A stretch of DNA of 35,446 nucleotides, taken from contig ADNK01001867.1 of assembly GCA_000320545.1 (NCBI GenBank), positions 1 through 35,446 of the forward strand, written 5' to 3'. Made by a program: the position numbers and the translations under genes. Under the pieces are notes generated by a model. The model was not told the origin of the DNA. It searched no databases and saw nothing but the letters and a program-made list of their open reading frames with translations. The DNA comes from Bigelowiella natans CCMP2755. Its lineage: Eukaryota; Protista; Cercozoa. Positions 1 through 35,446 of this stretch are shown piece by piece; positions within the stretch are counted from its first letter, which is position 1, and each line of letters starts with the position of its first letter.

Positions 1-321
1 GGTTAGAAAGCCAGCACACCATTTTTTACGTGTTCTTAAACAAGAGAGCGGGGAGACGAAAGCAACGTCATAGCCATGCAGCTAAGGAATACTTTGGAAG
101 TTTTATTGAATTGGTGTTTCATCATCATCATCATCATCATCATCATCGTCACGATCGATTTCAAACATCTTCTTGTCCACAAGACTAACCCTGCTGATCG
201 CTGTTTTGGCCCTTTCCGTGTCCTTTCGCAAGGGGGGCAGTAAAGCCGACGCGCTGCTGGCGAGGCTCCACGCCTGAGATACTTTCCGCCTTTTCCTGAT
301 AATAGTAAGTCATGAATGACT

Positions 322-352
<31 letters not shown>

Positions 353-1177
353 GATTCAAACCGATCTTCCTGTTCTGCTGTGGAGTTTTTGACGAATAAA
401 TCCCCTTTTAGCTCTTCATCGCTCGTAACGTTGTTGCGGTTGCTTTCCTGATTATTTGCTGTGGATGATGACTGCGTGGAGGACCCCTTCGCCATATTGT
501 TATTGCGATTGTTATCAGGGGATCTGGGTAAGATTATCCGCGACAACCCAAAATCCGCCACTTTGGCAACCTGATTAGGGAGAAAGGGGGGGGAGGGGAG
601 AGAGGAGGAAATGAAAGAAAAACAATAAATACCCGGGAAAGAAAGCAAGAAAACAAAGGGAGAGACGATAACTACGAGCATCACACACACACACACACAC
701 GGCAATATATGAGGCAGAGCAGCTGGCAGATTCCCAGACGCAACACCTTCTTTCTGGTGAGTGCGTGTGATTGCTGCCATGACGATAATAGCAGCATTGT
801 ATATACTGCCCAAATTGTATTTCTAAATAAAAAACGAAGCTGCTCATTATCATCAGCACTACCAAGCTTCCCGTCTCGGGAGCGAACTGCACCAGGACAT
901 TCTGCGACTTCAAATCCCTGAAGAGCGGATGGTTGGGGGGGAGAGAAAGAGAAGTAGTCTTTATTTGCTGGTGGTGTGGATCTTTTGCATGTGCAGCACC
1001 GTCAGAGATGGATAATGGTGGCGTTGTTGGTTGTTGGTGAGACATTGGCGGCAATCACGATGATAAAAGCCAGATTCGTCTTTTATCACAACTGCAGTAA
1101 CTACCACGACCACCACTCGATGATGAAGATGAAGAAGAAGAAGAAGATGATGATGATGATGGGAGCTGCTGCTGCTG

Positions 1178-1208
<31 letters not shown>

Positions 1209-1973
1209 CGCTACTACCTATGCACGATTTTCTGTTGGTGTAGGAACGCCATTCCCTCCGCCACATCCAGGGCTAGCTGTACACGTGTTGCGATTGGGAG
1301 ACTCATTGGAGAGTCAAGTACGTCTCGCAGCGACCCTGGCAAGAGTATGAGCATCAGTGTCGGTGGTTGTAGTCGTCTGTATTACTACTACTACTAGCTA
1401 GTGGTAGTAGTATTGACACAAAACCGATTGGCGAACCGTAAACCCTATCCCTCATACGTCCTCCATCTCGTTTCTCTTTCTTCTTCTTCTTCTTCTTCTT
1501 CTTCTTCTTCCTTGGTCATCCGCCACCACCGCTACCACCTTTCCGACAGAATTCAAAGACGAGGAAGAGCTCTGGAGGCCGCAAGCACACACCAAAGAAT
1601 CGAACGATCTGATGGTGGTGGTGGTGGTGGTGGTTATGGGGGCCATTCACTGCAGCAATAAGATAGATCTTCGCTTGGATCGATCCTTATCATCTTTCCA
1701 TACTCAGACGATGATGATGATGATGAGGATGATAACGGAGAGAAAAGGAGAACCTACTCTTGAAATCCTTCTTTACACTCCCACTCTTACTACTGCCGAG
1801 TCAACACCACCACCACCACCACCACAATACTACATCAACTGCTATTATCCGTTCGCATACATTGCGATGTGACAGGCGAAAGCTGAGGATAGCCTCCTGG
1901 CAATAGCTCCGGACCTTTATGGGGGAGCAATACCGAAACAATGGAAAACAGAAACACATCAAAGGAACATCCC

Positions 1974-2016
<43 letters not shown>

Positions 2017-2206
2017 ACCCCCCCTCCCTCCTTTCTCGCCCTCTCTTTGTAAGTGCATTCACTGGTGCTCCCCCTCCCCTTGTGATTCTCCTCCTCCCTC
2101 TTCTTCCTCCCAACTTCTAGCAAGCACTATGTTTATATACTTACAACATCTGCCGTAAGTTCCTGGAAATCGAGCGACTTTAGAGCTAATTCCTGAATTT
2201 TCAGAA

Positions 2207-2241
<35 letters not shown>

Positions 2242-2665
2242 AGTTTGTGTGTGTGTGTGTGAGTGTATGTTTATGGGAAGCTCATAATCCTGTTTTTCGC
2301 TGTTTCTCAAATCAACTTCACCCCCTTCCCTCCCCCCGCTCCTGTATTGTACAACAACCTCATTTCCGTAGCTAGCCTTGAACACAGAGGCCGTGGCACC
2401 GCTTCCTAGTCTGCATCGAGGAGAGACATCAAAGCATGTTCTCTCGTGCTACATGTTTCTCGCTGGTCATCCCTTTTCTGTTTTTTGTTCTTCACTTTCA
2501 TCATCATCATTATCATCATCATCATTCTTCTTCTTCTTCGTATTCTTACGGGTCGAGAATCTCCAACTTAGCGAAGTCTAGGACTTGGATGGGAATAAGG
2601 GTAGTAGCAATAAGAGTGACAACACCAACAAACAAGTAGATGGATATGGTGGCACTAAGCTTCTT

Positions 2666-2707
<42 letters not shown>

Positions 2708-2734
2708 ACACCAGCAAACAACTTACATATTGTG

Positions 2735-2789
<55 letters not shown>

Positions 2790-3423
2790 TTAGCATACGA
2801 CTGACAAAACTGAAATGCCCTCAACGCAAAACCGTTGGGGGAGAGGGGTTCTACTTCACACGAAATGGATGATCATTACGTCTAATCTCCATTGCCAGGA
2901 ACTCTTGCAGTTGTGCAAAGCTACGGCGTGATACACGATTGATTGCTCCTACAACAGCAGGGAGGAGGAGGAGAAGAAGGAGAAGGAGAAGGGAAGGAGA
3001 GTGAGGAGGACAAAAAATTAGGAAGAGCAGAAGACGCATGTCAATCGAAACGTGCTCAACGGTATATCCGTGTTATTATTATTATAAAAAATAATTACTA
3101 CTACTACTACTACTACTATTTCAACTACAACTACAGACCTTCAAAAACGCTAGCATCACTCCTAGTTCCAGCCGCACCCACCACCTTTGCGGCCACCACC
3201 ACCAGCAGCAGCAGCACTCAATCAGTCGATCAATCAACCAATCAATCAAACCAACGAACAACGCATATATGTTACACTGCTAGCTATACTACAGAACATT
3301 ATAACAGCAGAGGCTATCGATAAACGGGCAATGGCAGACCGTCGCTAAGCTCCTCCAATAGCGAGAGTCGTCTCGAAGAGCGATGAGAATTGCAATGGGT
3401 TGAGCCAAGATTACCTACCAACA

Positions 3424-3463
<40 letters not shown>

Positions 3464-4950
3464 GCAGAAGAAGAGGAAACAAGAGACAGGTAGCCCTGGA
3501 CAACAATAATCCATCTAGTAGTAGTAGTAGTAGTAGTAGTGGTAGTAGTGGTAGGTTTACGAGGAGATCTCCAGCAGTCCAAAAGCAGAGCTCATCGTGA
3601 AAGCTGCTGTGCTGATCTCCCAGCTTGGACGCGCTTCCCACCACGTACAAAAGGTTCACAACGAGCTGTGGATTAGGAGAGGAGAGAGAAGACGAACCAA
3701 TCATTATGGCATTGTGTTGTTATTGCTGTGCTTTCTTGCTGCACACCTGTAGCCCGACGTAGAGGTACAACGTTCTCCACCGTCTCCTCCGCGTAAAAAG
3801 CCTGCACATTAAATCGATCCTCCATGTGTAAGAAAATTGTGTGCCCATAGATGACCGTACGTGTTTGATGCGTGTGTGAGGGGAAGGGTGGGGGCGCTCA
3901 TAACTATATCGCCCACTTCGCCTGGATGATCCCACTTTGTGTTAAGATCTCATGATGATCATCATTTATGTTGTCATTTTGTTTATTCATGAAGATCCTC
4001 CTCTTCCTCCTCCTCCTCCTACTGATGCTGCTGCTGCTTGCTCGCTGACTCACATGTAGGTGAGAATGCCGAGGTAAACGGACGTTGCCAGGGTGTCGTG
4101 GAGGAGGAAGAGGAGACTTGACGACTCCTAACAACCAAAGCAGTGCCAACAATGTGAGTACATAATGCGTATTCGCAACGTCATAGGTACTGCTGTCGCC
4201 TTCGACGGTATCTCAACTCTCATCACCTTGAGTTTCCACACCAATATTCCAGACATTAGCCCCGCAATTGTGAGCATAAGCCCCGCCCCTATCGCTGCCC
4301 TACGAAAAGCAGCCTGACCACTCGACCGTTGGACCAGCACGAATGCCACGACGGAACCCAAAAACTAAGAATAATGCACGACGAGCACCGGTATATTTGC
4401 AAATGAGATCGTTGCGACAGTACACTCTCTCTTCGGGTGGTAGACAGAGTTCACAGCAGTAAAACACAAATCTATCGCTGAGGGGGGGAGCAACCTCACG
4501 CGATCCTTGCAAACCAAAGCCCCAGATCAGCCAGAACCACCATTTATTCGAATCAAATGTCACGGTGTCGCTAAAATTTCCAACCTATAAAGCGAAAACA
4601 GGCAGAGATCTGTATAATAGGGCTCCTCCTCAAAGGACCACAACATAATGAATTAATGCTCATCTCTCCTTACGAGATCAAGCGACGCACGAATCCCCGC
4701 CGATAAGACGCAGAGCCAGAGGATGTAATCGTAGACAGGAAGAATAACGTCCGGTGAGAAAATGCAATTGCGCAAACGCATGCATCGTCGATTTCCAAGA
4801 GCTTTCACCATCTGGTGGGAGTGCCAACGCTCGAATTTGACGAAACACACAATGAAGATAGGCAGCATCAGAGAGATTAGAAGTAAACCCAGCCTCATTT
4901 CATTGGACCCAGCATAGTAGATAGATTGACAAGCATCGTTGTTGCCGTCT
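1..4950 (-). CDS. Multi-exon multi-pass membrane protein fused to a TKL-type protein kinase (GPCR-TKL-like); subdomains VIII-XI run off the left edge, start codon uncertain
   Basis: GT-AG spliced exons give LGSGATASVFKASYGNE (Gly loop, ~2360-2410), ELALKSLDFQELTADV (~2143-2190), VRSYCQEAILSFRLSHRN (~1861-1914), IVRFFGVCLRPPELFLVFEFCRKG (~1540-1608), SLRDVLD...LALDVAEGMAFLHQQKIVHR (~1218-1335), DLKSQNVLV (~863-918) and VAKVADFGLSR (~540-570). Upstream exons (3500-4900) encode several hydrophobic helices (LGLLLISLMLPIFIVCFV, YILWLCVLSAG, WWFWLIWGFGL, AIGAGLMLTIAGLMSGILVW). Confidence 0.9.
120..3550. repeat. Dense microsatellite cluster in kinase introns and exon edges: (CAT)n, (CA)n, (TC)n, (AT)n, (CTA)n, (TCT)n, (GGT)n
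   Basis: Examples: (CAT)n 120-147, (TC)n ~1977-2011, (AT)n ~2209-2236, (CA)n ~2668-2710, (TC)n ~2739-2774, (AT)n ~3427-3461. Confidence 0.95.
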
Positions 4951-5125: not shown

Positions 5126-7171
5126 ATGGAGCCCATGCCGGTGGAGGAGGCCGTCATTGGTGAGAAGGGAAAGGATCGCACCGGTAGACATTTTAAGTAG
5201 GGCACCCGACTTCTGGCTCAAAAAACAGCTCTTTTTTGTCGAGCGACAAACACTAAATCGGATTTTTTTGAGATGAAATCAGCCAAACATTTGGGTTGGA
5301 AATCGCCTAGAATGCTGCCAGCAGAGTAGTTCCGCAGAAACTTTTGCTGAGAATCGCCACCCATTTCACAGTCGACGTCAGGTCCTGGCCACCCAGCATC
5401 CAGAAATCACGTTTTGCGTAGTTCACATGACGATTTCTTAAGAGAATTGATGATTCTGGGTTGTCGTCTCCGAAGATTGGTCGACGTATTAGACCTCCTC
5501 GTTCTATTTTGAAACCACCCCCCCGATATGTATGAAAGGAACTGATCAACAAACCGAGGGCACTCACTCGAATCAACCATCTCCGTCATCTGTCACTACA
5601 TTTGCGTGTAACATGCACATGCACACGTACTCCGAAAGAGGCTTCACGCATGAACATTCCGATGGAAAGCCCTGAGGAAGGGGGATCGAATTTTGTCTGC
5701 CGGCTTAATACAAGCCACCCGCAGTTGAATAGTCGGAGCTCAAGTAATCAATTTACATGTCGAATCCTCACAGCCCGACCATCGAAGAAGGAATTACCGT
5801 CACCAGCAACACCGAAGAGGAGTTCCTCCAGAGAACCCACCGCACCTGATCAATACCATCAAGAAACTCCTGGGAATGTCAAAATGGTGTCAAGTAATTC
5901 CGAGCCACAATTTACCTGTCGAATCCTCACAGCCCGACCATCGAAGAAGGAATTACCGTCACCAGCAACACCGAAGAGGAGTTCCTCCAGAGAACCCATC
6001 GCACCTGATCGATTCCAAAAAGAAGTTTCAGCGAGCGTCACCTTTTCTCGTAGCAAGTCGAAACTTCGAAATAGAGCGACCTTTGCTCGGCGTCCTCACA
6101 GTATAAAATCTACCACTCCAAAGTGTACTATCCCACTGTCTGCCTCGGACAGCCACGTGACGTCGTTCCCGGAGCAATTACCTGGCACACAGCCTGGCAT
6201 GTCCAGAAGCTTGGTCAAAGAGCGTTTATGTGAATCAAAGAATCGTTCACTGGATGATATGCGTAGTTTACGTCAAATAAAGACTCCTGGAAAATCATTC
6301 TCCTCGATAGAAGCAAATACACTAAGAGGACAACCAACCCAGTGCGTTGGCTCCATGGGGATGCCTGGCATCAGTTTCACACAAAAGTCACAATATTCAT
6401 CAATGTCATCATCACAGAGCTCTAACTCCTCAGTCTCACCTAAACTCACGCCGCGATCATATTCGGATATACCACGGAAAAGCAGCAAAAGAGTCCAAAA
6501 CGAAAAATTGCGAAAGCTGAAATCTAGAACCACCATGTTGAGGAGCTTAGGCGTTCAGGATGGGAGTAGATGCCGAATTAGGTTCGAGCAATAATTCGCA
6601 AACTTACTCTGTCTTAATCTATCACATTGTGCTCTCTGATGCCATTTCTGCATTCCAGGTCGGGAGGCCGTCTCTTGCTGAAGTCATTGCCTGAATCTGA
6701 ACTTTCTCTCAAAAGAAGGTTTTGACTTACATCGCGCACAAAAAGTTTCAATAAAGCTGGGATTCTAAATCGTGACCATGATGTTTCCATCAGAGGGGCA
6801 ACCTACAAGAAATCTCCCTTCTCACATACAGACGGCCATAAGATGAGGTGCGGTCCCTAACCTTCATCATCTCTTCGACCTTTGTGGTGCTCTATTCATC
6901 AAGTTCACTCCCTTTGATAGATGCGCTGCCAAAGCACTGGCCAGGGAACCAGCATCGGGTATTGACGATGAGTGCAAAAGGGGTTCGTCGACACCATTAC
7001 ATCAGGAGATAAAGCAGCTTCGCGCTCTAGGTATAACTTCTAGACGTTAAAGAGCATCTTCCTTCCTGCCTGCTTTCCTGGGTCTTAGTAGAGCAGGATC
7101 GACGTCTTGTGGCCTCTTCATGGTACAGTCAGAGCATTATACTCTGCAGTTTCGTTCGAATTTCAGGATAG
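5126..7171 (+). CDS. Uncharacterised Ser/Arg/Pro-rich, probably disordered multi-exon protein
   Basis: 330-aa ORF 5602-6594 plus downstream GT-AG bounded exons that stay in frame (SGGRLLLKSLPESELSLKRR, GATYKKSPFSHTDGHKM, CAAKALAREPASG...QEIKQLRAL). No domain recognised; both ends approximate. Confidence 0.55.
5749..6010 (+). repeat. In-frame direct duplication of ~100 bp with a 159-bp period
   Basis: caatttac...gaatcctcacagcccgaccatcgaagaaggaattaccgtcaccagcaacaccgaagaggagttcctccagagaaccca at 5749 and 5908; the peptide QFTCRILTARPSKKELPSPATPKRSSSREP occurs twice. Confidence 0.95.
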
Positions 7172-7309: not shown

Positions 7310-7700
7310 TGTAGCTGTGCAAAGCAGTGGCTACAGTGCCTATGTAGTATTTGTTTGTTTCTGCTATTATATGGCGCATGAATGCAAAAGCATCCATCTA
7401 GCCGTGCCAATAAGTCGTTGTGTCGCGCAGTGCGCGCAGCAGTGCGTGCTTCCGTTTCGGTTGTCGTCATTCGTTGGCTTCGCTATGTGGCACCAGTCAA
7501 TCACATGTATGCTCTGTAGGTGTACGATCATTATTAATCTTATTCACGCGTATCGCATAGACGCAGCGCATCTTTGCGCGCAAGCAGACACTTCGCGGCC
7601 GCCATCGCCTGTCTATGAGCTCTCAGCGCTCAGCGCCGGCGCACGCATCAACTGCTAGCACATTCTACGCTCCGTCTAGCATGCTTAGAATTAAAAAACG
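7310..7700. other. Pyrimidine-purine/short-palindrome-rich spacer between convergent genes
   Basis: Dense GCGC, TGCA, AGCT, CATG and CTAG; no spliceable ORF; lies between a + gene 3' end and the oxidoreductase stop at 7971. Confidence 0.6.
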
Positions 7701-7970
7701 CTCTAGGCATTGCTTTACCCAAACACACGAAGCTAGACGACTTGAAATATTAATAAGTATCGTATCTGGGCGTAGCCGCTCATTTGATTTTTAATTTATG
7801 TAACTCGATGCGAACTGCAATTACTTCTCGGATTGTACGCATCGAAACTTTTTCAAAAATCAATGTCACAAGTTACCAATCGACTGCTAATTACCTGCAA
7901 TAGTAAATGTAGTACATGAATGTCGTTGGACGTATAGCCTTACTTCTTGCGAAGCTTACTATCCCATTTT

Positions 7971-11456: not shown

Positions 11457-12442
11457 TGCACTTCAGAAGATGATCTAAAACGTGACCATTTTGACATATC
11501 TCACTCATCTCTCATCTCAAGCCAAATCAAGAACTTGTCATGAACCTCAAAATGAGGCGTCGACTTAAGGAAATAGATGCAACAGATAAAGAGGTACTAT
11601 TCTTCGCAAACTTTAGATCATGAGCATCCCTCTTTTCTCTATTATGAATGTATTAGCTCGTGTTCCTCAGATTCTGGATGCACTAAGACAATGTAATAAC
11701 GTTGGGCGGAAGGCAATTGCACTGTTGAAAACCGGAAAGGTAATTCTAATTCAATGATGTAAGAACATACTACTATGTGTTCAAATGATGATGCTGAACT
11801 TACAAATGCGACTAATTTTCATTCTTCATTGTTGCAGGTTCCAACGCATCGTAAAGGAGAATCAATGACAGGACTCGCAAGTAAAATAAAACCCAAGATT
11901 TTTCTGTTTTCGTGAAAGCGACCTACTTCATGTGCGTCTCACTCACATGTAATTACTCTCATGTTTCCGTTTTCCCTTTATCGCATCCATACGACAGACA
12001 CAATGGCAGCAAACATTTGTCACAGCACTCCGAGAAATTCTCTCGATGCAGGCGATGCACGGTCCTCGACAACTCTAGGTGGACATGTAGCAGAAGATGT
12101 GAAATCGACTGAATCATCGGCCGAAGCAAAAATAAATGATGAAATTATGTCAGAAGGCAAGATTTGATCACATTGATTGGTCTAGTGGCGTTGATCTTAG
12201 GTGTGACGTCATTTCATCAAATGAACAAACGACACAGCGGCAACGCTGTAGCTTGAAATGCATGAACTAGAACATGAATTGAAAATTTCACGCTCAAATA
12301 GGCGTGCTAGCGTGTGCAAGAATACATTACCACTCATTGCTTGCTATGGAGAGAAGTTCGCCGGCAGATGGTACTCCGACGGCTGAGAATCATGAGAAGA
12401 GATTGCCACCGATGTGAGATTCGAAATCTCCTGGACTCTTAG
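11186..12442 (+). CDS. Small multi-exon protein with a UBA-like helical segment
   Basis: GT-AG exons: MASLLFVPAFK|PNQELVMNLKMRRRLKEIDATDKE|ILDALRQCNNVGRKAIALLKTGK; the AL..CNN....A..LL pattern resembles UBA domains. 3' exons are ambiguous. Confidence 0.45.
11398..11456. repeat. (CA)n microsatellite
   Basis: Directly visible run of more than 25 CA units. Confidence 0.95.
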
Positions 12443-12510
12443 TAGCTATTACGAATGTTGATCACACCTGCAGCAGTGCGTAGTACGCTCGCCATTCGTC
12501 GCGGCCTAAT

Positions 12511-13400
12511 CGCCGCTGGTTGCCCTGCCCCCCGAGCGCAAGGGGTGCTAGCTAGCTAGCAGGGCGTGTGGAACGAGCCTGAAAACCGAGGTGGTCTAGT
12601 CTAGTAGTGGTGTGGGTGAGCTGTGTGCTGTTGCCTCCTCGCCGTTCAGCCTTCCTCGTCAGAGGCAGGGAAAACCATTGAGTCTGAATTGGCCGAGGGG
12701 AGTGAGAAAGTGGAAAAGCGTGAAATGGTGTGCTGCCCTGTGCTCCTTCGTTGACCGGTCCAACGCCCTCTAGCCCTCATTGGCGACCCTCCTGTTGTCA
12801 GAAAACGTCCATTTCCTAGCACCACCTAGCCGCAGAACCATCACCGCTCCCTGCATTGACGATGTTTCGAACGCCGTCGATGCCACCAGTGCAACATTGC
12901 AAGGGAACAACGCATTGTTCAGCTGGATGGAGGGTGACTTTCATTCATGTTTGCACGCAGTTCATGCACACAGTGGCCCACGCTAGCACACTCCATGCAG
13001 CTACGCTGTGATGTGATGCACTGATGCACACCATATCTTCATCATCTTGTGTGTCTAGTCATTACCAATTGTTCAGTGTTCTTGGATTGCATCATTCGAC
13101 AGGCGGGTTCGCGTGTTCGATTTGACAAAAATTGGACATGTTCCCATGCACATGCATTCACAATGCCACGCTCATTTTTTGTGCATGTGTGTGTTGACTG
13201 ACGTGCGAGCAGTTGTGCAGCATCGGCTGCGCGCATGCTGAGCCGTGCAGCACTAGAGCATCGCAATCGTCAGTCTGTCTAGCTCTAGCTAGAGCTCTAA
13301 CGTGTCACGCGTGACCACGCTGCATTGCTAGATTGCAGCATTCATCGATCAGCCTTCGTGCGTTGTGTGCGTTTGTGCAACTAGCAAACAACAACGCGCG
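12511..13400. other. TpA-depleted, CTAG-retaining domain (hypermutated-looking intergenic DNA)
   Basis: Hand count: 21 TA dinucleotides in 890 bp, 16 of them inside CTAG. Confidence 0.85.
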
Positions 13401-13639
13401 GTAGCTATATACTTGTGTGCACGCGTGCACATCCATACAAATCGAAGCTTCGCAGAACGAATTTGCGCATTTCTAGATTTGCTTTGCCCGTGCGCATGAT
13501 CGATCAATGCGCTAGAATGCACTAGTGCATGATGTAATGTGTGGCGATGACATCGCGCCTGCTTTAATCGTGCGATTCTATTAATTTAATATGCGTGTGC
13601 AGAGTGGAAGGAAGAGAACGTGACATGAAATGGACAAAT

Positions 13640-13870
13640 ATGAAATGTTTCCTCATCAAGAGTTCAACTCAAATCTCGTATCAGTATTTGCTGATTTTTC
13701 CTCGTGATTTGGTACGCTACTTATTTTTACGATGAATTGATTTCTTCTCCTAATAGTTCAATTTTCAAGAAGATAGCTCGATAATAAGGTCATGTGAGCT
13801 TATGTTTGTGCCGAAGATATATTCCTGTAGTAGCACAGGGATTGTCATTCACTATTTCATTATCATCATA

Positions 13871-14900: not shown

Positions 14901-16232
14901 ATGTCAGCTCTGTCTCTCAGGTTACCCTCCCCTGCCAGAACAGACTTTTCGATTTTGGTTCGGTTTCAGAACAAATGTGTACAGATTCATTCGAACTAAT
15001 AGCATTGGTTATAGCTAGAATTGGATGTTGGGAGGACAGTGATCGTAGGGTGTTAGATTGTTGGGGTACCCTATGTTGTCACGTGGAAGCTTAAAAAATA
15101 AACACCTATCTGTGAATATGTAGCCTCGTCGTCAATGCGCTTCTTGCCGCTCTTCTAGTTGTAACACTATCATCTTCGTCATCTCTTTCGTCCGGCCTCG
15201 CTCGGAGTCGCATCTCCAGCCGATCCAGTCTGAGCAGCTTCAGATCTCCACTGTCCCTCCAAAACCGAGTATGCCACCAGGCCAGCGGAACCATGGCTAG
15301 GTAAATACTTAGAGAAAAAATCTTTATTTAGGTTTTAGAAATTGTTGTAACGTGGCTAAATGCTCTTTGTATGAACGCAAAGGCGTGGGGTGTCGGTGAA
15401 TGGCCAAACGTACAAGGTTACCCTGAAAACTCCTGGTGGGGACCACGAAATCGAATGTCCAGACGACATGTGAGTCACCTCTTTACATATCTAAATCAAA
15501 ACACAAATATATGATGTTATCATCGCATTGTTGAAATATAAAGACAAACGTATGGTATGAGTTTTGAGATGTGTTATGGGTGTGTTGTTTGTTGTGTGTT
15601 GTGTGTCGTATGTGTTGTGTGCTGTGTGTCGTATGTGTTGTGTGTTGTGTGTTGTGTGTGTGGTATGGAAAGGGGAATACATGTTTGTGCGTTTGAGTGT
15701 TCACTTTTTAATGAGCGGGTGAGTAAGTGAATGTGGAGTATATATAAGTTGTATATCACGAGCAAGAGGAAATATTAATTTGAATAGGTATATTCTTGAC
15801 AAGGCTGAAATGGATGGAATTGCTCTTCCGTATTCCTGTAGAGCTGGTATCAATATAGAAAATTGAAAGAAAAATCTATATCAAGCTAACTCACAAACAA
15901 CAGGATTTTGCATTTCCTGTGCTGGAATCATGGAGGACGGCACCGTAGATCAGAGTGATCAGACATTCCTGAACGTGAGAATGAATTTCCTAATTTATAT
16001 AATCTAAATACTACGATCTTCATATGCCAGCTAAAAAGATATTGTACACATTATTTTAGGAGGATCAAGTGAAACAAGGAATTGTTCTTACTTGTTTCGG
16101 TACTTATTCCGCCTGTATTGATCATCATACCTCGCGAAAGCTTATGCTTGTTTTTTGTTCCATTCCTATTCAGCTCGACCGACATCTGATATGACCGTCC
16201 GTACTCACGTAGAAAACGAGCTGTCCTTATAA
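14901..16232 (+). CDS. petF: Plastid-targeted plant-type [2Fe-2S] ferredoxin with bipartite presequence, 7 exons
   Basis: Exons 14901-14920, 15124-15300, 15383-15469, 15788-15846, 15904-15974, 16060-16099 and 16174-16232 splice to MSALSLSLVVNALLAALLVVTLSSSS (signal peptide), an S/R-rich transit-like region, then [95 protein letters not shown]. All four Fe-S cysteines are present. Confidence 0.96.
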
Positions 16233-16299: not shown

Positions 16300-17000
16300 G
16301 TATGCCAGTAGATGCTGGCTATGGAGACATAAGTGCCTCGCATAAGTAAAACTAGTCTACGTGCACACGTAGTTAATACTACAGAACAATGCGCTATAGC
16401 TATTAGCGTGTAGGGTAGGTGCCATGCACATTGCATGTACAACAATAAGCAACTCAGCGTTGCAGCATGGCATTGCACTCACTATTCTGTAATGTATAAA
16501 CTTCTATTTGTGGCACCACCCAGTATCGTACGTACGGTACAGTTTGTGGCTGTGACAATGCTAATTAATGATGTGATGATGTGCGCTTGATAATGATGTA
16601 CACACCTGCATAGTTGCCGCAGGTCGCAGAGCTAGCCCTAGCAGAGTAGTATCCATGGCGTACATGCCGCAGAGATGACACAGCCTTGCCAACAGATGTC
16701 GGTATTACTGTCGTAGGCATAAGCTATATTAGGCTAGTAGGGTGACCATTGGAAAAATCCAACCATTTCTCACATATGCGCAGGCCAAGCTGGCACAGAA
16801 ACAGCTAAGCACGTATTATAGTGAAAGCATTACTAGCGACTAGATTAGCACGCTACGCTGAAAATGTCTAGATTTAGAGCCGTTGTGAATATATATGCAA
16901 TGAGCATCGAGCTATCGCACCGACCACCGGGTTTACAAATAATATGCAGTGCCTATTACACGTGCATAGCATGACATAGACCTAATAATACCGTTTACCT
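16300..17000. other. Pyrimidine-purine/short-palindrome-rich spacer between convergent genes (TpA retained)
   Basis: Dense TGCA, ACGT, GTAC, CATG, CTAG and AGCT (e.g. ctacgtgcacacgtag, cgtacgtacg) between the petF and phosphatase stop codons. Confidence 0.65.
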
Positions 17001-17225: not shown

Positions 17226-18934
17226 TCAGGCTTGGAGATGGTCTGGTAGTTCTCCAAGCTCTGCCTCCGTGCCCATTTTCCCTTCCACAACGCTATCCTG
17301 CACCGCGGGATTATCATCGTTCGAATTTGGTCCCGCCTGCATGTTACCACCCTTCTGATTGTCCGAGCCCAGAGAATGATTACTCTTCTTCCACGGTACG
17401 CCCTTCAAATATATCACAATCAGAGTTGTGAAACAGCCCAGCACGGTGCCTGCAGCAAAAAGGAACACAAAAGAAACCGTCTCGCGGGTGGAGGAATCAC
17501 ATGAAGACGAATCTTTCCCTTCCATTGAAGAGAGTAGTCCAGACAAGCATTGATCAGCCTCCTTGTTTTCGCACGCCTTGCACCAAACCTGCACATCCCC
17601 GTAACTAACGGTGGTGCGGAGCTGGGGGGCAAGTTGCGATAGCGGACACAAGCCTGCAGGAGATGGCGAGGGGCAAACAGAACCAAAGGAGAGTGCCAAC
17701 GGCACTACTTGTAGCCCCTCTTTGTAGACCATCCTCACGGAGCGTTCCTTGCTTACTGCATCTTCGTAGAGCTCGAAAATAAGTGCCGAGGCGTAGTTCG
17801 GGATAGTCTCCTGCTGCAAGGGCGGATTGGCTGTGTAAGCGTCGAGTGTGGCGAATATACTGAGAATCGTAGGGTAGTGTGCCGAGAAGAGAACCCAGGA
17901 GTATAAGTAGGAAGGACTTTGTTCCATGTTTTCCAAGATTTTTAGAAGAATGTTTCCGCCAAGCTTAGTACCAGCCGTTTTACGTCCATACCTGTTTAGT
18001 AGGATCCTCAGGCATGACACTAATTGGTGTTGACTGAAAGTAGGTAGAATCCTGAGGTTGTGTGTCCTGTATTTTATGTGCGCATGCGTGTGTGCGTTGT
18101 TTATGCGTGTGTGCAAGCATACACGTATTACTACAGGTTTATTTTTTTCGGCACAAGATACTTCTGGTGCTCAGCGTAGTGTGCCACTTGTTGGAGGACA
18201 GCCCATTCATCCGGCAGCAGATAGTCACGAATGCTGGGATCTGGCAGCGCTAAGCATTCTACTGAGTTGGGATTTGGGTCGCATTCGGTCTTGGCAACAT
18301 TTATGATGTCAAAAGCGTTCCATACTAGAGATAGTGGCACCAACTTGCCCACCACGGGTCGCATTTCCGTATAGGGATTAAGGGATGGATGTTGGCCAAG
18401 CTTCTGTAGAAGGTCTATATGGGTCTGCTCGAATGACATAAACTCGCTGGATCGATAGAGCTGGTCAAGGGATATGGAAAAAGTTGGGCAGTTTGCATAT
18501 GCTCGGATGTCGACATCATTACCGTCTGCCTTTGTGTAAATAGGCACGTTAGCCCGAGTGACATTTGCAGGCAGCATGCTTGCACCGTCATCTCGCTCGG
18601 GAAATAAACCCAAGGCGAGGTTCTGTGCCGAGACAATTGTTCGAGCGAAAGATGAACTTCGTAGAAGGACCGAGCTTGAATTATAGCTTCTGATCTCCGG
18701 TCTAGACGTTATGGACGAATATCTTTGGCGGAGCCATATTCCTAAGTCATACTGTTGCCTCTCCCCTGTGGGGGTTAGGCGCTCACCACCTCCCTCTTCT
18801 AGAGTTCTGGCAGCCTTGGAGAGCGGAGTTCGAGCTCCATGGCGGGTTACGACTTGCACTTGAATAAGTGTGTGTTGTTGTGCAAGCGCCAGTGCGAAAA
18901 TGAAAACGAGCCAGAATCCCACTACATTACACAT
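17226..18934 (-). CDS. Histidine acid phosphatase (branch 2), signal peptide plus C-terminal TM helix, 2 exons, ~512 aa
   Basis: RHGARTP catalytic motif, LTPTGERQQYDLG and RSSSFARTIVSAQ. Single intron 17992-18161 (gtatct...aacag) joins the two ORFs in frame. N-terminal FWLVFIFALALA; TM segment VSFVFLFAAGTVLGCFTTLIVIYL. Confidence 0.93.
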
Positions 18935-23431: not shown

Positions 23432-24873
23432 GTAATATCATCACCAAGCTGGTATCCCCTCAAATTGCCTCTTTCAGAACAATTTTGACAAGCACCTGGG
23501 TACATTCTTGGAGATGTTCAACAAAAAGCTGAGGAGGTGAGGGAAAGAACATAGAGGAGGGAAAAGGAGTAGCTTGACAAGATTCTCCAACAAGAGAGTA
23601 TGGATGCATGAGTGAGAGTGAGTGTTCGTGTAGTGTTCATTTTTCTCAACTCTTTCTCAATGTGGATTGTGTGTGTGTGTATGTGTGTGTGTGTGTGTGC
23701 GTATGGGGGTTGTGTGTTTGCAGAACACCAACGATTAATTCTAGGCCGCTCGATCTTTATCGACTCTACAGAGAGGTGCTTTTTGGGTTTGTGCTTTTGA
23801 GAGTAGTGGTAGTAGTGCTTATCTGGAATGGGTTGTGGTAATGGGAGCAATGGTGCAAAGCCACCATCTTCCACACCCAATCACACCCTTTCTTCTGTAG
23901 GCTCCACGTCGAACCACCTCCCCCCATTTTCCTCCCCCCCCCTCTTTTGCTCTCGCTCAGGTCGTACACATGGGTGGATGTGACCGTGTAGTGGCACAGG
24001 AGGGCTGTTGGACAAAGATCTTCCGAACATTGGAAAACTATAGTGTCAAGGTAGTAATATGCGACGGTTGTCAGAAAAGGAGATGAAGCTGTAGGAGTAG
24101 CAGCAGGAGTTGTTTTTCTCGTTTTTGTTGTGTTCTCCTCTTATCGTCACCGCTTTCTCCTCCTCCACGTTACCGCCATCGTGGTTTTCGTTTTTACGTT
24201 GCCGTATCATGTGATCGTAGGTAACTGACGCAAGCTACCGGCTGAAAAGATACTATAAGCACTACCTCTATGCATATGAACAACACTTCTACTTCGGCAA
24301 GGTACTGCTGATTGTGCGCTACTTGCATTAGCTGGTAGTAGAAGTAAGTGGAAGGACCTTAGGGAAACAAGGCAGTAACAAATAGAGCTTAAAATACTGC
24401 TGTGGGATAAGAGGATGAGTCGTGTTAGGATAGCAGCCCTTCTGTTGAGCAGCAACGACAACTGCGACGATGATGACACAGCTTCATTGCCCTCTCTTTC
24501 ATTTGCTACATTTCTAAACTTCAAATTACCCCTCCCTATCTATCAGCCGCTAACATCTCCTGAGTTTGAGAGGGAGAAGAATAATGGTTCCTCGATGAAA
24601 TCGTCGAATTCTTCGGGCAGGACTAAACGATCATCGCAGAAGAAGGTGAAGGAATTCATAACTGTACCCACGATGACAGCCACCTTCCCTTCGGGTTTCA
24701 AAGCTGACAGTATGCAGACTGCCACAACTTTTTCGACTCCCACATGGAAAAGGAGCAACAGAATCAACACCAACATCACCAGCACTATGCCGGGAGCAGC
24801 GACGACACGACCTTTAATTTCGAAATTGTCGTCAGCTGCGAATGTTCACTCACAATTGGCCGCAGGTCGATAG
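19923..24873 (+). CDS. Chromatin protein: GATA-like Zn finger, PHD finger, low-complexity linker, zf-CW and ARID
   Basis: Spliced: CCGNEFCKATDSVRWSQSIHMGAQRWLCNGC (GATA-like); FCPHCEQ|IYRQCDRNGFDGKEWVSCVNCTRWTHV|ECE...YLCVECR (PHD, C4HC3); RWFRCINCYKWR|RVPLMTPFESMWEDWTCSKASWTSTNCTFAEE (zf-CW, exons 22817-22863 and 22976-23072); TPTINSRPLDLYRLYRE|VVHMGGCDRVVAQEGCWTKIFRTL...|VTDASYRLKRYYKHYLYAYEQ (ARID, exons 23724-23775, 23961-24050, 24221-24301). Middle exons and both ends are less certain. Confidence 0.88.
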
Positions 24874-24999
24874 CTAATATCTCACCCTATGTTAGAAATA
24901 CTGGAAAAGAGACAAAATCGCAGGATGACTGTACGTAGATATATAAGACTCACTTCTATATTTTGTTATGACATTGTATAACTTTAAATAATAACTATG

Positions 25000-25460
25000 C
25001 ATAGAGTGCGCTTGCGGGCAAACTCAGCTCTGGTGCTGCAAATGAATCTTTATTATCTGCTAGATTTGCCGGCCAGCTAAAACATATGCTAATAATAATA
25101 GCCTATACATTCGCTGCCAAAAATGCAGCTATCCAGTGCGACGTTACAAAGCTAGAAAGAGCAAGCAAGCACCTAGCTGTGCAACAGCATGTACTGAGTG
25201 TCTCGCGCGCTACACCTAGACATACGGATCGGATGTACAGGTTTGCGTCTGGCGCTGGATGTCATCTCATTGTGCTAGCTATACGCACATCAGCTGTATG
25301 ACGCAAGATGAACATACAAACATTACACATGTATATACATAAGTGTCCATATAAATAAATATATGTACATCTAACACATACTAGCACATACAAATAATGT
25401 GACGCTTAAGTGTACATGTAGAGCATTTACCAACGACGATTATTCCTTACATACGCGCAA
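25000..25460. other. Pyrimidine-purine/short-palindrome-rich spacer between convergent genes (TpA retained)
   Basis: Repeated AGCT, CTAG, GTAC, CATG and GCGC plus tacat runs between the ARID gene end and the 25550 stop codon. Confidence 0.65.
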
Positions 25461-25549
25461 TGTAACGGGCTTTATTTCGGTTTTCTAATGAATTATGAAC
25501 TTCTCTCATCATCTAACTCGGCCGTCTTTTGAATAAAATATGGTCGTAG

Positions 25550-26525
25550 TTACATCTTTAACTTTATTGCTTCCACAAGTTGTGTTGAAATCTTTTGATA
25601 GGCTTTAGATTCCTGAACCACCTCTTTTATTTTACCGGCGGTAAAAGCATCTGAGTATGTTGATCAAGGTGTTAATTGTTGACTTTCTATTTTATTTCTC
25701 TTATATTCGGAAATTATTTAAGTGAAACCTTGAAGGGGTTGAATTTTTGACGATATTTTCTTCGCTGCTTCAATCTCGTCCCTCAGTTTTGTTTCTGTAG
25801 ATTATCTCGTGTTTAATTTAACACCTTTCATTTGAATGATTTTTCACCTTGTTCCTTCATTTTTGTTTTCATGCTCTGAAGATTCCAAATTTTTTTGCGA
25901 AGTGTTTGGATATCCTAACGAAGAATACATAAGTACGTAGTTGTACTTTAATTTGTATGTATTACTACTTTTTCTGAGGGTGCCTCTGAGGTTTCGTCGT
26001 CTATGTTTTGGCTAGACAACAGTATATCTATCAACTCTTGGCCAAAACCATCGAATGATTCTTGGATTGATTTTTGTAGCGTGTTTGAGAGTTCATCCAC
26101 ACACTGTAAATATATTTCACAACATTTCTCAGCCCTCAATCTGTTCTATTTTCGCAAGGACACAACGCACCTTTACAACTTTTGGAGATTCATCTTTTCC
26201 AACAGCATCTATAATTTCGACCTCGATCTTATCCATTGCATCAAGTGCTCTCTCCTCTACTGCAAGTTGAAGATCTTGAGCGATGACCCGAATCAGTTCT
26301 TCCTTCTTTTTCTCATCTCGTGCTGAGGATTATTCATTACACTTATTCCATCTCATTCATTTCTAATGTTTGATATTATTGCTACATTTTGCATCCGATT
26401 TTTGTTTCTTATTAGCCTCCTTCCCCTGTGCTTTAGATCTTGGACTGCAGATTAAAATGACAAGATGTACAGTCAGTTACTGAATCCGCACAGCTTCAAG
26501 CAATATACCTTTTCCTTTTCCCCAT
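25550..26525 (-). CDS. Small charged coiled-coil protein with a basic N-terminus, multi-exon
   Basis: MGKRKS|PRSKAQGKKEANKKQKSDAK..., ARDEKKKEELIRVIAQDLQLAVEERALDAMDKIE, RAEKCCEIYLQCVDELSNTLQKSIQESF and last exon DAFTAGKIKEVVQESKAYQKISTQLVEAIKLKM*, separated by short AT-rich GT-AG introns. Confidence 0.65.
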
Positions 26526-26890
26526 CTCAATGTTGTGCGGGCGAGGTTTTAGAGCTCTTGGGTGTCCTTTTTTAAGTTGTTGTTGAAGGGCAGTGCTGTC
26601 GTAGTTTTCGGATGAATTCTCAGTTTGATCCTCCACAACACCACCGGTCTCCATTTCTCATAATTCACCTTAATTCAAACTGAAACCACCCATGTGATTC
26701 CTAACGGAAACCAAAAACACATATGATTTCCGCAATGCGGCAATCTATAAGCCCTGACGCAGCATGGAATCTTTCGACGTTTAGCACATTCACAAAAGAT
26801 CCCTACATTGGAATTCCGAAAAGCTATGATGCTTCGTTCCCGCCTTTTTTTTTGCTAATTTCGACCAACGACACCGATTTGCTGGTAGTG

Positions 26891-27603
26891 GCGGGAAAGA
26901 GTGTCTTTTCCAGAGATCCTCGAGAGATCATCTAGTCCTGCTTGGTGCTCCCTCGGGCTGTTCCGAGGATCGTCGCTTGGATGTGTGATGTGGCCTTCAG
27001 GAAGTTCCTGCTCAAAGTGCATGCTTTGCGTCGCCGCCACATTGCTGCTAGTCACACTGCTCCATGACAGCTAGTGTGCCATCATCCAAATCCTGCTGGT
27101 CTTGCCACTTCACCAGTCAGTCCAGCAGTCCTCACTAGAGCTAGTTCGAGGCACTGCGTTTCGTGCACTGCAAACGTCTTGCAACGTTTTTGGAAATGCA
27201 GCATTTCATCATTGTCTGGTTGGAGGACGGGGAAAGTGTTGGAAAGCACGGAACAGCTGAGTGGACAAAGATTGCACAAGATCAGCACCTTGAAGTTGAA
27301 CATCGCATCGAAATTGAGACTCAAATGAACAAATGAACTCATGCGATGCCGATGCGCGTGCACCACCATTTTGTCCGAAAGCTAGCTAGCAAGACTGACA
27401 CACGCACACTAGCACGTCTGGACGTGCTCGCACAGCACACCGCAGTGCAACAGATTGAGTTCCAATCTCGCAGAAGCGTGACAGATCGACGCACGCTCTC
27501 TAGCGCTGTCTCACCACGCAGCCACGTTGGTTGACAAGACACATGATACGCTAGCAATGCACGGCCAACAAGTTGGTGGTGCAGGAGGGCGCCATGCATG
27601 CGT

Positions 27604-27639
<36 letters not shown>

Positions 27640-27770
27640 ATGCTCCAAGCCTGCAAGGTAATTCATCAAGCAAGCATGGCAGTGAGCCAAATTGCTGATG
27701 AGGCAATGCTTGGTTTCATCTGATGATGGATGATGCACAAACGTCGACACAAAGACCTTTTCTTCATTTT
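26891..27770. other. TpA-depleted, CTAG-retaining domain
   Basis: Hand count: 12 TA dinucleotides in 880 bp, 10 inside CTAG; the exceptions are ATAC at ~27547 and GTAA at 27659. Confidence 0.9.
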
Positions 27771-33329: not shown

Positions 33330-34148
33330 GTAGCCGTAGTAGTGGGTTGCAGTCTGATGCTTGACCCAAGAGATTGTGGTGGATAATTGAAGGAGTGGTA
33401 ATGAGCACAACTTTGGGGTGATGTGCATTTTGCATGCCCATCAAAACGCAGCAAGGAATGTTTTCTCATACGTGGTGTATCATTAAATGTGTACCAAATC
33501 ACACTGTCAAAAGTATGCAGAAGATGAAGCGCATGCTGCGCATGCTTAGATCTAAAGATGCACATCATTTGCGCACGCAAGCATGCATATGTACGTGTGT
33601 GTGTGTGTGTGTGTGTGTGGTCGTAACATTGCTAACAGCCTCTGCAACTCAAGACAAAGCCAGCCACCTGGAAGCCAAAGAACACTTTTTAGCGGTTTGG
33701 CGGGCTACGCTAGCGGATCGAGTGCAGAAATGTGCATGCATCATGCCATGCTAGCATGCCCTCGCGTGGTGCAACGTAATAAGCTACACTGCGTCCTCGA
33801 TTCGCGATCTTCGACCATTGTTGTGGCTGATCGTTGACCATATAACCATTGTGGCTGAGCTAGCCAAATTTGCGACACCATCGACCGCCACAGCAAGTGC
33901 CCGTAGCGTGCATAACAGTCTGTCACCAGAGTCAACGCGATGAAGGGCCATGCACAGTCAGCGTCATGCAATGCAAATTGCACGCGACTGACGCACGCAC
34001 ATGCTAGCTAGCTAGCATGGCTAGATGGCCATGGAGACTCTGGTCACGCTAGCACGCCTTGTGCATGAGTTCTGGGGTTGCATGCCAGCCGTGTTGTAGT
34101 CCACAGTGCTAGATTCAGAGTGTGGTGCACGTGTCAAGTGGTTGTTCA
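33330..34148. other. Pyrimidine-purine/palindrome-rich spacer downstream of the FAM166-like gene, TpA-depleted in its distal part
   Basis: TGCA, CATG and GCTAGC dense; 33916-34148 has 7 TA, 6 of them inside CTAG. Confidence 0.65.
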
Positions 34149-34474
34149 TGTTGCGCGTAAGGTGTTCACAGGCCGAGGCGCTACGTGCACAAGTAGGCAG
34201 GGGGGGGGAAAGGCACGTTTGCTTCCTTTTGAAGAGTTGTGTTTATTTTTATTAAAGATTATATTTTTATTAAATCGTGCACTGCGTAATCATTCGCGAA
34301 GCTTTCGCGAATGCCGCCGCACGTGGGGCAGCACACTTCCGGTGTGCTGCCATGAGTCCCGCCGGAACCCACGTGCCTATGCTGTATTAATATCTACGTT
34401 ATCTATATTCTATATCCGCGACAACCCCTTTGTTGTCGCACGTGACTTGTGCCCGCGTAGTGGTACGCGCTACA
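34149..34474 (-). repeat. 3' LTR, 326 bp
   Basis: Minus strand starts TGTAGCGCGTA directly after the PPT and ends TACGCGCAACA (10/11 terminal inverted repeat); clustered AATAAA signals at ~34243-34272. The partner LTR is outside the window. Confidence 0.8.
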
Positions 34475-34525: not shown

Positions 34526-35446
34526 TCATCGCTTTCGGAACTTCACCAACCACCAGGTAATAGATTCCTCTCTAACCTTATCTCCTTTGTCGCTTACCCA
34601 GAACTCACCTTCGTCCTTAGGTTCGTGTCCATACCAGCCCTCTGCATCAAGGTCCCCCAGGACCTTATACCAGTGCTCAAAGGGTAAGTCGGGAACAGCT
34701 AGGTAGAGTAGCTGATATTTTCCGTCCTTTATTTTCATAGCTACCCTCTCCATATTTCGTAATCCAGGGTAGCCTAGATAGACAATCTTCATGCGCCAAT
34801 CGTCGTTCACCCTGACCTTATTGTTTCCATATTCCACATCGAACTTAGGTCGGGGTCCTAAACAAGGCATTGCTCGCTCCCACACAGTAGGGTTTACTTT
34901 AACATCCTCTAGGAGCTTCTCACCGATATCATAATTCTTTAGGTGACTGATGTGGCGCAAGGTGACCCTGTTCCCATCATAGATGTAGTACTGCTTCCTC
35001 CCCTTCCTCTCGGTAACCTTTGCAACGCCACCCCAGAAGGGGTCTTGTTTATTTCTCGATCTCAGATTTACCTTGGCCCTAACATACTGTCCTTCCTTTA
35101 GAACTCGGCCATCGTACGGGACCTTCTCGTCTTCGCTCTCGGTATCGTCGTCGTTGTCGTCGCCTTCTTCCCTCTCCTTATCCTTGATACCTCCCCCAGA
35201 CGTGAAGGTGTCGTTTACTAACCCTTGTATCTTGTCTGGTGTGGTGCTATTTATCCTGCTTAGGTTGGCCAAGGTGCGGTGGAGTCGCTCTACCTTGGAG
35301 TTGGACTGGGCATAGTATACAGGTGAGGCATCAATATTAGGGTGTGGTAGCTGTAGAAGAGAGGTCTCATTATCCACATGTAACTTCTTTGGTATCTTGT
35401 TTATGCTAACTTCATCAGGACCCCCATAGGTACATTGTTCTAACCG
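34526..35446 (-). CDS. Retrotransposon Pol C-terminus: integrase core, SH3-like C-terminal domain, degenerate Dam-like methyltransferase-fold domain
   Basis: Frame is open to the window edge: IPKKLHVDNE (second catalytic D), SPVYYAQSNSKVERLHRTL (catalytic E), KQDPFWGGVAKV...RHISHLKNY (GPY/F-SH3-like), then W-x5-YLGYPG...RVAMKI...LYLAVPDLPFEHWYKVL. Confidence 0.88.
   Translation of the reverse strand, partial: RLEQCTYGGPDEVSINKIPKKLHVDNETSLLQLPHPNIDASPVYYAQSNSKVERLHRTLANLSRINSTTPDKIQGLVNDTFTSGGGIKDKEREEGDDNDDDTESEDEKVPYDGRVLKEGQYVRAKVNLRSRNKQDPFWGGVAKVTERKGRKQYYIYDGNRVTLRHISHLKNYDIGEKLLEDVKVNPTVWERAMPCLGPRPKFDVEYGNNKVRVNDDWRMKIVYLGYPGLRNMERVAMKIKDGKYQLLYLAVPDLPFEHWYKVLGDLDAEGWYGHEPKDEGEFWVSDKGDKVREESITWWLVKFRKR

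Follow-up and report, generated by a model that had tools for sequence, protein, structure and literature searches.

A TpA-poor gap between converging genes of Bigelowiella natans carries CTAG motifs between 4-bp direct repeats, probable scars of a cut-and-paste transposon

The window analysed here, the whole stretch of 35,446 nucleotides of contig ADNK01001867.1 from Bigelowiella natans CCMP2755, contains at 12511-13400 an intergenic domain from which TpA has been nearly erased, set within a somewhat larger island (about 12170-13560) that bears the CTAG scars described below. On its left, the last exons of an expressed plus-strand gene without known function occupy 11519-12167, as defined by splice joints and stranded reads, with introns at 11592-11668, 11738-11835 and 11881-11997 (read joints), a stop codon at 12165-12167, and an mRNA that tails off at about 12350-12430 in stranded RNA reads. 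On its right, an expressed minus-strand gene converges on the domain, its 3' end (13563-13826) being covered by minus-strand reads from about 13565, and little transcription is seen between the two gene ends. The reads therefore bear out the placement of the domain downstream of a gene 3' end, which an earlier note had proposed from the sequence alone, and add that a second, converging gene ends at the other side. Inspection of the open reading frames in 12511-13400 found none of viral or transposable element (TE) type, the window has no Rfam match, and the matches listed when it is compared with itself by BLAST are mainly microsatellites. In DNA run X10, one contig spans 11693-13373 with zero differences and no insertion in the domain, which is single copy in that run at 85% likeness; no letter differs over the domain in the X10, X15 or main X16 contigs, a sequence far too short for a rate.

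The domain has a GC fraction of 0.54 and contains 21 TA, 16 of them within CTAG, exactly as the earlier note had counted, and the three motifs it quoted are present; equally, 12608-12999 is free of TA outside CTAG, holding only four TA, each in CTAG. The five TA that stand outside CTAG compare with a mean of 43.7 and a minimum of 24 in 5000 base shuffles; 2000 dinucleotide shuffles gave 1.5 CTAG on average and never more than 7, against the 16 observed. Measured over 890 bp at a time, the observed/expected ratio of non-CTAG TA is 0.11 here and 0.06 in a second domain at 26.9-27.8 kb, the only two places in the 35-kb window where it falls below 0.25; elsewhere it is at least 0.40, and introns defined by read joints have a TA ratio of 0.86. 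The longest runs without non-CTAG TA are 26886-27547, 12605-13002, 13063-13298 and 33913-34097. Rho for TpA is 0.45 in 12511-13400, or 0.11 when CTAG is left out, and Rho for CpA+TpG is raised to 1.59; the second domain (26891-27770) has values of 0.23 and 1.69.

A TpA-erasing process, as the earlier note had supposed, is documented in this species. The available text of Mettrop et al. (bioRxiv 10.64898/2026.01.13.699255) describes TpA to TpG/CpA hypermutation in B. natans, with a rate of about 6e-7 in two integrated viral regions (186-kb and 25-kb inserts) and ongoing TpA mutation about 1000 times background; low-TpA genes are there enriched for DDE and RT domains, 231 TpA mutations and 21 indels are counted, an ADAT2-type deaminase is put forward as candidate mutator, and low-TpA clusters are defined as at least three 1-kb windows, with cut-offs of 0.43 for TpA and 1.52 for CpA+TpG. 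The domain resembles those regions in its lowered TpA and raised CpA+TpG (0.45 and 1.59) and perhaps in a tie to mobile DNA, to which a partly high-copy repeat in the second domain, and scars, LTR junctions and a diverged copy in 12511-13400, may point; it differs in being a sub-kilobase, non-coding gap between expressed genes and not a viral insert. Its TpA value lies just above the published cut-off (0.11 without CTAG, and 0.23 in the second domain). The erasure in 12511-13400 is likely due to the reported TA to TG/CA mutator, a known process of B. natans met here at smaller scale, and what appears to be new is the CTAG scar signature; the available text of the preprint mentions neither CTAG nor footprints. 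Our results suggest that the mutator also acts on gaps of less than a kilobase between active genes, which the 1-kb scan of the preprint would pass over, in part because the TpA score is raised by CTAG scars; none of the 35 1-kb tiles of the window, laid from its first base, passes both published cut-offs. In the available text of a further preprint, one H3K9me3/H3K27me3 heterochromatin state is described on B. natans TEs (bioRxiv 2025.03.17.643675).

What distinguishes the CTAG motifs is the sequence on either side of them. Across the window, 14 of 111 CTAGs have an exact 4-bp direct repeat on either side, the corresponding figure for all 4-mer cores being 273 of 33842 (0.8%), and the length of the presumed target duplication is fixed at 4 bp: exact repeats around CTAG number 2 at k=3, 14 at k=4, 0 at k=5 and 1 at k=6. 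We refer to a CTAG between two copies of one 4-mer as a scar. Within six intergenic islands, which were drawn by eye and partly by CTAG itself, 14 of 59 CTAGs are exact scars, against 0 of 52 outside (Fisher p 7e-5), and with up to one mismatch allowed the counts become 26 of 59 and 1 of 52 (p 6e-8). When the flanks were permuted 20000 times within islands, exact scars averaged 1.2 and never exceeded 7, compared with the 14 observed, and nine other palindromic cores gave 0-1 exact flanked cases each. Scar-bearing islands take up about 12% of the window.

Five of the 14 exact scars lie within 12511-13400, two of these inside nested scars, and 13 of its 16 CTAGs fit the scar reading, leaving three unexplained: five are exact, one is exact after peeling, one is a duplicated target copy, two belong to a double core, one has a 3-base core and three show one mismatch, of which about one would be expected by chance. 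The series opens in the 3' UTR, left of the domain, with CGTG-CTAG-CGTG at 12303-12314. Within the domain there follow (CTAG)3 at 12548-12559, a scar whose 4-bp target is itself CTAG; a nested pair at 12592-12611, where peeling off TAGT-CTAG-TAGT at 12601 lays bare TGGT-CTAG-TGGT; CCCT-CTAG-CCCT at 12766-12777; one-mismatch scars at 12822-12833 (CCAC/CCGC) and 12979-12990 (CACG/CACA); AGCA-CTAG-AGCA at 13249-13260; a compound scar at 13275-13296, in which a one-mismatch scar (CTGT/CTCT) overlaps AGCT-CTAGCTAG-AGCT, the double core; ATTG-CTAG-ATTG at 13324-13335; and the short-core variant GCAA-CTA-GCAA at 13377-13387. Two more exact scars, ATTT at 13473 and TGCA at 13522, lie to the right of the domain (13469-13529). 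Among 13 one-mismatch pairs of the window, four set CG against CA (7398, 12826, 12983 and 27409), about three near-matches being expected by chance, a pattern hinting at CpG decay in the islands.

A diverged copy, less than 90% alike, of 12468-12930 is present in a minor contig of run X16 (depth 5.5). It covers 12468-12526 and 12735-12930, is without about 12578-12734 and without the (CTAG)3 run, and its likeness to the window seems to reach left to about 12354. The 157 absent bases (12578-12734) have GCC microhomology at their bounds. At the 12766 scar the copy lacks 8 bases (at 12768-12778) and agrees with the predicted empty site in 17 of 18 letters, as read from this one contig of depth 5.5, and the one-mismatch scar at 12822 is common to both copies. 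The copy is itself TA-poor, and only one of the eight listed substitutions between it and the window sets TA against TG, and its loose letters, read by eye, give two more TA/TG cases and a further one in the opposite direction. Erasure in place is thus weakly shown in 12511-13400, and much of the TA loss would be older than the split of the copies, or inherited. The suggestion in the earlier note that the GC-richer left half may be a decayed insertion fits the existence of a diverged copy of that half, which does not amount to proof.

The second domain, at 26891-27770, lies upstream of a minus-strand gene and includes at 26934-27217 a high-copy repeat that is transcribed mainly on the plus strand. 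Along its length the repeat reaches about 85 to 1100 times single-copy depth in DNA run X7, a rough figure derived from 319 records over the whole stretch, their summed depth rising to about 53000 versus 46. Its copies show frequent internal deletions and variable CpG sites and are also TA-poor, only 5 of 34 tallied differences being such as would create a TA; no site in the window matches a 20-base motif of the repeat family, even when 3 mismatches are allowed. The adjoining 27230-27600 is nearly TA-free and single copy at 80% likeness. None of the 10 CTAGs of this domain is an exact scar, and at two of them most copies have another word, CTGA in one case (79-93% by depth) and CCAG in the other (62%), so that some CTAGs differ by point change. 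Decayed scars are found here, CAGT-CCAG-CAGT at 27118-27129 and ACGT-CTGG-ACGT at 27414-27425, and a loose end from another copy of the repeat, read by eye, carries an extra CATT-CTAG-CATT. The 27118 scar is empty in other copies, exactly 8 bases being absent from five X7 contigs and one X15 contig, and empty sites that lack the core and one repeat, 8 bases each, are thus seen at two sites (12766 and 27118). More generally, among cores that differ from CTAG by one change, flanking repeats are kept only at CCAG/CTGG (2 exact and 5 near of 16, compared with 0 and 2 of 57; p 0.046 and 0.005), both exact cases lying in the second domain and none in 12511-13400. This is the change reported for the TpA mutator, and CTAG is therefore not immune to conversion. 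As the 27118 scar is absent from other copies and yet has a converted core, at least one TA to CA change would have followed a local insertion.

These copies bear on whether the domains were erased where they now lie. The earlier note had seen no similarity between the two domains and held that one process had acted on them independently. They are indeed unrelated, the best alignment of 12511-13400 with 26.9-27.6 kb scoring 25 against a shuffle mean of 25.1, and its best match to 33.6-34.1 kb scores 36, equal to the shuffle maximum and consisting mostly of the shared (CTAG)3 run. The claim of independent action is weakened: the copies of the 26934-27217 repeat and the diverged copy of the left half are already TA-poor, which places part of the TA loss before these copies arose. 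One might accordingly regard the domains as remnants of repeat families whose master copies were erased elsewhere, and the abundance of the repeat, the rarity of TA-creating differences among its copies and the TA poverty of the diverged copy all agree with such an origin. We nevertheless think it unlikely, if worth keeping in view, since 27230-27600 and 12511-13400 are equally TA-free and single copy (at 80% and 85% likeness), the converted core of the 27118 scar would be a local change, and inheritance, compatible as it is with the CTAG scars, leaves them unaddressed. Some of the TA loss in 12511-13400 may still have been inherited.

The earlier note had called the domain CTAG-retaining, and a mutator that swept it and spared CTAG, with nothing inserted, would account for 26 of the 32 remaining TA of the two domains lying in CTAG, against 3.6% of TA elsewhere, and for the persistence of old, mismatched CTAG scars in the second domain, where other TA number 1 in 710 bp. 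As it stands, the label is not supported. Without any erasure 2.0-3.4 CTAGs would be expected in 12511-13400, and the 16 observed exceed this 5-8 fold, a number that protection alone cannot give; most of them appear to have been inserted with a 4-bp duplication. Nor does a general protection of YTAR fit, as TTAA is absent from the domain and CTAA/TTAG occurs once, and protection creates neither 4-bp flanking repeats nor empty sites 8 bases shorter, while the converted CCAG/CTGG cores contradict immunity. Context protection is refuted as the sole cause, and we regard it as very improbable. Partial resistance of CTAG may nonetheless add to the surplus in 12511-13400. By a rough clock that rests on the background rates of the preprint in its available text (bioRxiv 10.64898/2026.01.13.699255), the data fit a date after the last TpA sweep for most scars in 12511-13400, and in the second domain the CTAG scars with mismatches would predate its last sweep; that these outlived it suggests a slower conversion of CTAG, and makes some resistance likely.

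Scars and erasure can be separated elsewhere in the window. A third, partly erased domain at 33640-34148 holds four exact scars, including CATG-(CTAG)3-CATG, and the islands at 7330-7760, 16320-17000 and 24990-25430 have a surplus of CTAG with normal TA (Rho 1.1-1.4) and contain 0, 1 and 1 exact scars, respectively. These three islands are also rich in TGCA, CATG and GCGC (alternating purine-pyrimidine) and poor in CC/GG. The reads place the 25.0-25.4 kb island between converging gene ends, and the 16-kb island, judged from open reading frames, appears to be so placed as well. The location of this island and of 12511-13400 between converging 3' ends, together with 14 GCTAGC against 0.7 expected across the three TpA-erased domains, might be taken to mean that CTAG or GCTAGC are selected protein-binding or termination motifs. 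We consider this extremely unlikely: the flanks of the CTAGs are site-specific duplications that share no common motif, the second domain is found on the 5' side of a gene, and CTAG sites are absent from diverged copies. The available part of an ATAC-seq study reports almost no open chromatin more than 2 kb from starts (PMC8887012), which is weakly relevant, the genome being compact.

If the CTAGs were inserted, the process need not have involved a transposon with two defined ends. Insertions of 8 bases could arise from templated break repair or from an extremely truncated retroelement with a tail ending in CTAG, and in keeping with this we found no CTAG-ended element with terminal inverted repeats (TIRs) and no such miniature element (MITE) in the window, where genuine terminal inverted repeats are absent from all 21 CTAG pairs that share an outer 4-mer; the core also varies (CTA and CTAGCTAG), and the small indels and the 157-bp gap relative to the diverged copy are such as occur at a break-prone site. 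Against it, an invariant palindromic core within a duplication of constant 4-bp length suits the two ends of a TIR element, by analogy with Tc1/mariner, neither (CTAG)n tails nor longer truncations turned up, and the LTR resident here has TG…CA ends. An insertion process of this other kind therefore seems improbable to us.

Cut-and-paste DDE transposons such as Tc1/mariner and Sleeping Beauty leave footprints that consist of the target duplication and 2-3 bases of the element ends. The scars are like these in that a duplicated target flanks a short remnant of two ends and in their nesting at reused sites, and unlike Tc1/mariner in that the targets are varied 4-mers and not TA, and that the remnant CTAG implies CT…AG ends. 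With such varied targets, and no excess of TA-core-TA in the window, Tc1/mariner itself was rejected, as were CATG/TGCA cores as decayed mariner scars, which show no excess. The nucleomorph telomere repeat is TCTAGGG, and it was ruled out as a source of CTAG by the site-specific duplications in the flanks. According to the accessible parts of two published accounts (PMC10741241, PMC3627910), Sola elements duplicate 4 bp at their targets and have very variable ends, and Ginger elements duplicate 4-6 bp and end in TG…CA. The 4-bp duplication is thus shared with Sola, but the described targets of Sola2 are AT-rich (AWWT), which only one of the 14 exact targets here (ATTT) fits. Ginger was excluded by the core, which is CTAG and not TG…CA, exact repeats flanking TGCA in 0 of 62 cases and CATG in 1 of 43. 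Helitrons share the word CTAG, having it at their 3' end, but are described in the accessible text of PMC10741241 as inserting between A and T with no target duplication, and the 4-bp duplications that define the CTAGs studied here rule out Helitron ends. In listings of the openly accessible literature, neither CTAG scars nor an element of this kind were found to be described for chlorarachniophytes, and the accessible part of PMC12730881, which mentions eight DDE transposase genes, does not contain the word CTAG.

A Ty3/gypsy element enters the window at its right end, with a 326-bp 3' LTR on the minus strand at 34149-34474, at the edge of the third domain, and the end of a pol ORF (integrase region; minus strand) at 34526-35446, cut by the window edge. 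The TG…CA ends of the LTR and the polypurine tract just upstream of it agree with this class, as does the order gag-protease-RT-RNase H-integrase in members of its family and relatives, the window having the 3' end only. Of 18 matches to the pol ORF, 17 are Bigna1 gene models with 92-100% identity. The LTR is not TA-depleted (24 TA against 19.5 expected), as expected of a recent arrival, and we take the element to be young. It also lands in the domains described here. An X15 contig parts from the window at 12717, the 26 letters beyond being exactly those of 34149-34174, a junction to the 3' LTR end (12717-12718) that would place the element on the minus strand, and an X16 contig parts from it at 12814, where the 26 letters beyond equal 34449-34474 in reverse complement, a junction to the 5' LTR end (12814-12815) that would place it on the plus strand. 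Both junctions, which the window sequence does not contain, start exactly at the terminal TG of the LTR end, and each is known from one contig, from runs only guessed to be RNA; the opposite junction of neither insertion was seen (X15 for 12717, X16 for 12814). That both the position and the orientation differ suggests two independent insertions. Over 23720-27600 there were no LTR junctions among the matches listed, a scan of metagenomes with an 18-base LTR end gave 8 matches, all of 18-20 bases and due to chance, with 0 scars, and no relatives of pol were found among viral contigs. The element cannot explain the CTAG scars.

Composition, 4-bp repeats specific to CTAG, nesting, two empty sites and two LTR junctions are observed directly, and we judge it probable that 12511-13400 is explained by the known TpA mutator together with CTAG scars from the repeated insertion and excision of a cut-and-paste transposon. 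Such an element, with CT…AG ends, would duplicate four target bases at each insertion. On excision it would leave its outermost bases, whether as CT and AG after fill-in or as overhangs of CTA or CTAG that anneal to themselves, and repair would seal the leftover as target-CTAG-target, CTA and CTAGCTAG cores being possible repair variants by analogy with Tc1/mariner footprints. Many landings would make 12511-13400 an insertion hotspot, one used by the Ty3/gypsy element too. The mutator, acting on DNA derived from or visited by mobile elements, would erase the remaining TA, and scars made after the sweep, with a probably slower conversion at CTAG, would leave CTAG as the commonest surviving TA. 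In a broader form, which we offer tentatively as a possibility, an undescribed family of cut-and-paste transposons, ending in CTAG and choosing 4-bp targets, would have stamped intergenic hotspots of B. natans with scars of a uniform 8 bases, visits by mobile elements marking sub-kilobase, single-copy gaps of this kind for the mutator and the scars timestamping the sweeps.

TpA erasure in B. natans is a newly recognised, defence-like process. The context of surviving TpA is open to misreading here, as the commonest survivor would largely have been inserted. Each scar begins as two identical 4-mers around one TA and so records both age and conversion; genome sequences by themselves would then suffice to time the action of the mutator and to measure which contexts it prefers. 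A transposon family with CT…AG ends is a further prediction from the scars, and one open to direct search. If the reading with a CTAG-end transposon is true, they would provide a measure, across the genome, of the times, places and sequence contexts in which an A-to-G mutator acts.

The C-terminal part of the Ty3/gypsy pol has features of its own. Its last 134 residues (34529-34930, minus strand) have no Pfam match and match 47 proteins in a 50% library; 7 of 12 matches scanned carry Ty3-type pol domains (E 0.1 or better), the rest being too short or protease only. A model built from 25 sequences reached a pLDDT of 96, against 39 for a single-sequence fold. Its best fold matches are SAM-dependent methyltransferases, first among them CAPAM (Z 7.1, rmsd 3.4, 114 aligned), a cap adenosine N6-methyltransferase, with KsgA/Erm also near the top; at Z below 8, the predicted methyltransferase-like fold is only suggestive, and among solved structures a search by sequence yielded a single match, weak and unrelated. 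At what we take to be the position of the catalytic motif the tail reads GYPG, and the predicted domain may be inactive.

Other genes of the window include a ferredoxin-like gene with short exons at 15120-16232 (plus strand), with, by eye, a putative signal peptide and Ser/Arg-rich transit peptide, and a histidine acid phosphatase gene (PF00328) at 17226-18934 (minus strand). At 310-4212 (minus strand), exons that look protein-kinase-like by eye (DLKSQNVLV, VAKVADFGLSR, LGSGATASVFKA) alternate with microsatellite-rich introns, and single frames of this stretch had no Pfam match. A 117-bp direct repeat, 95% identical between 5749-5865 and 5908-6024, lies within an open frame of 352 amino acids.
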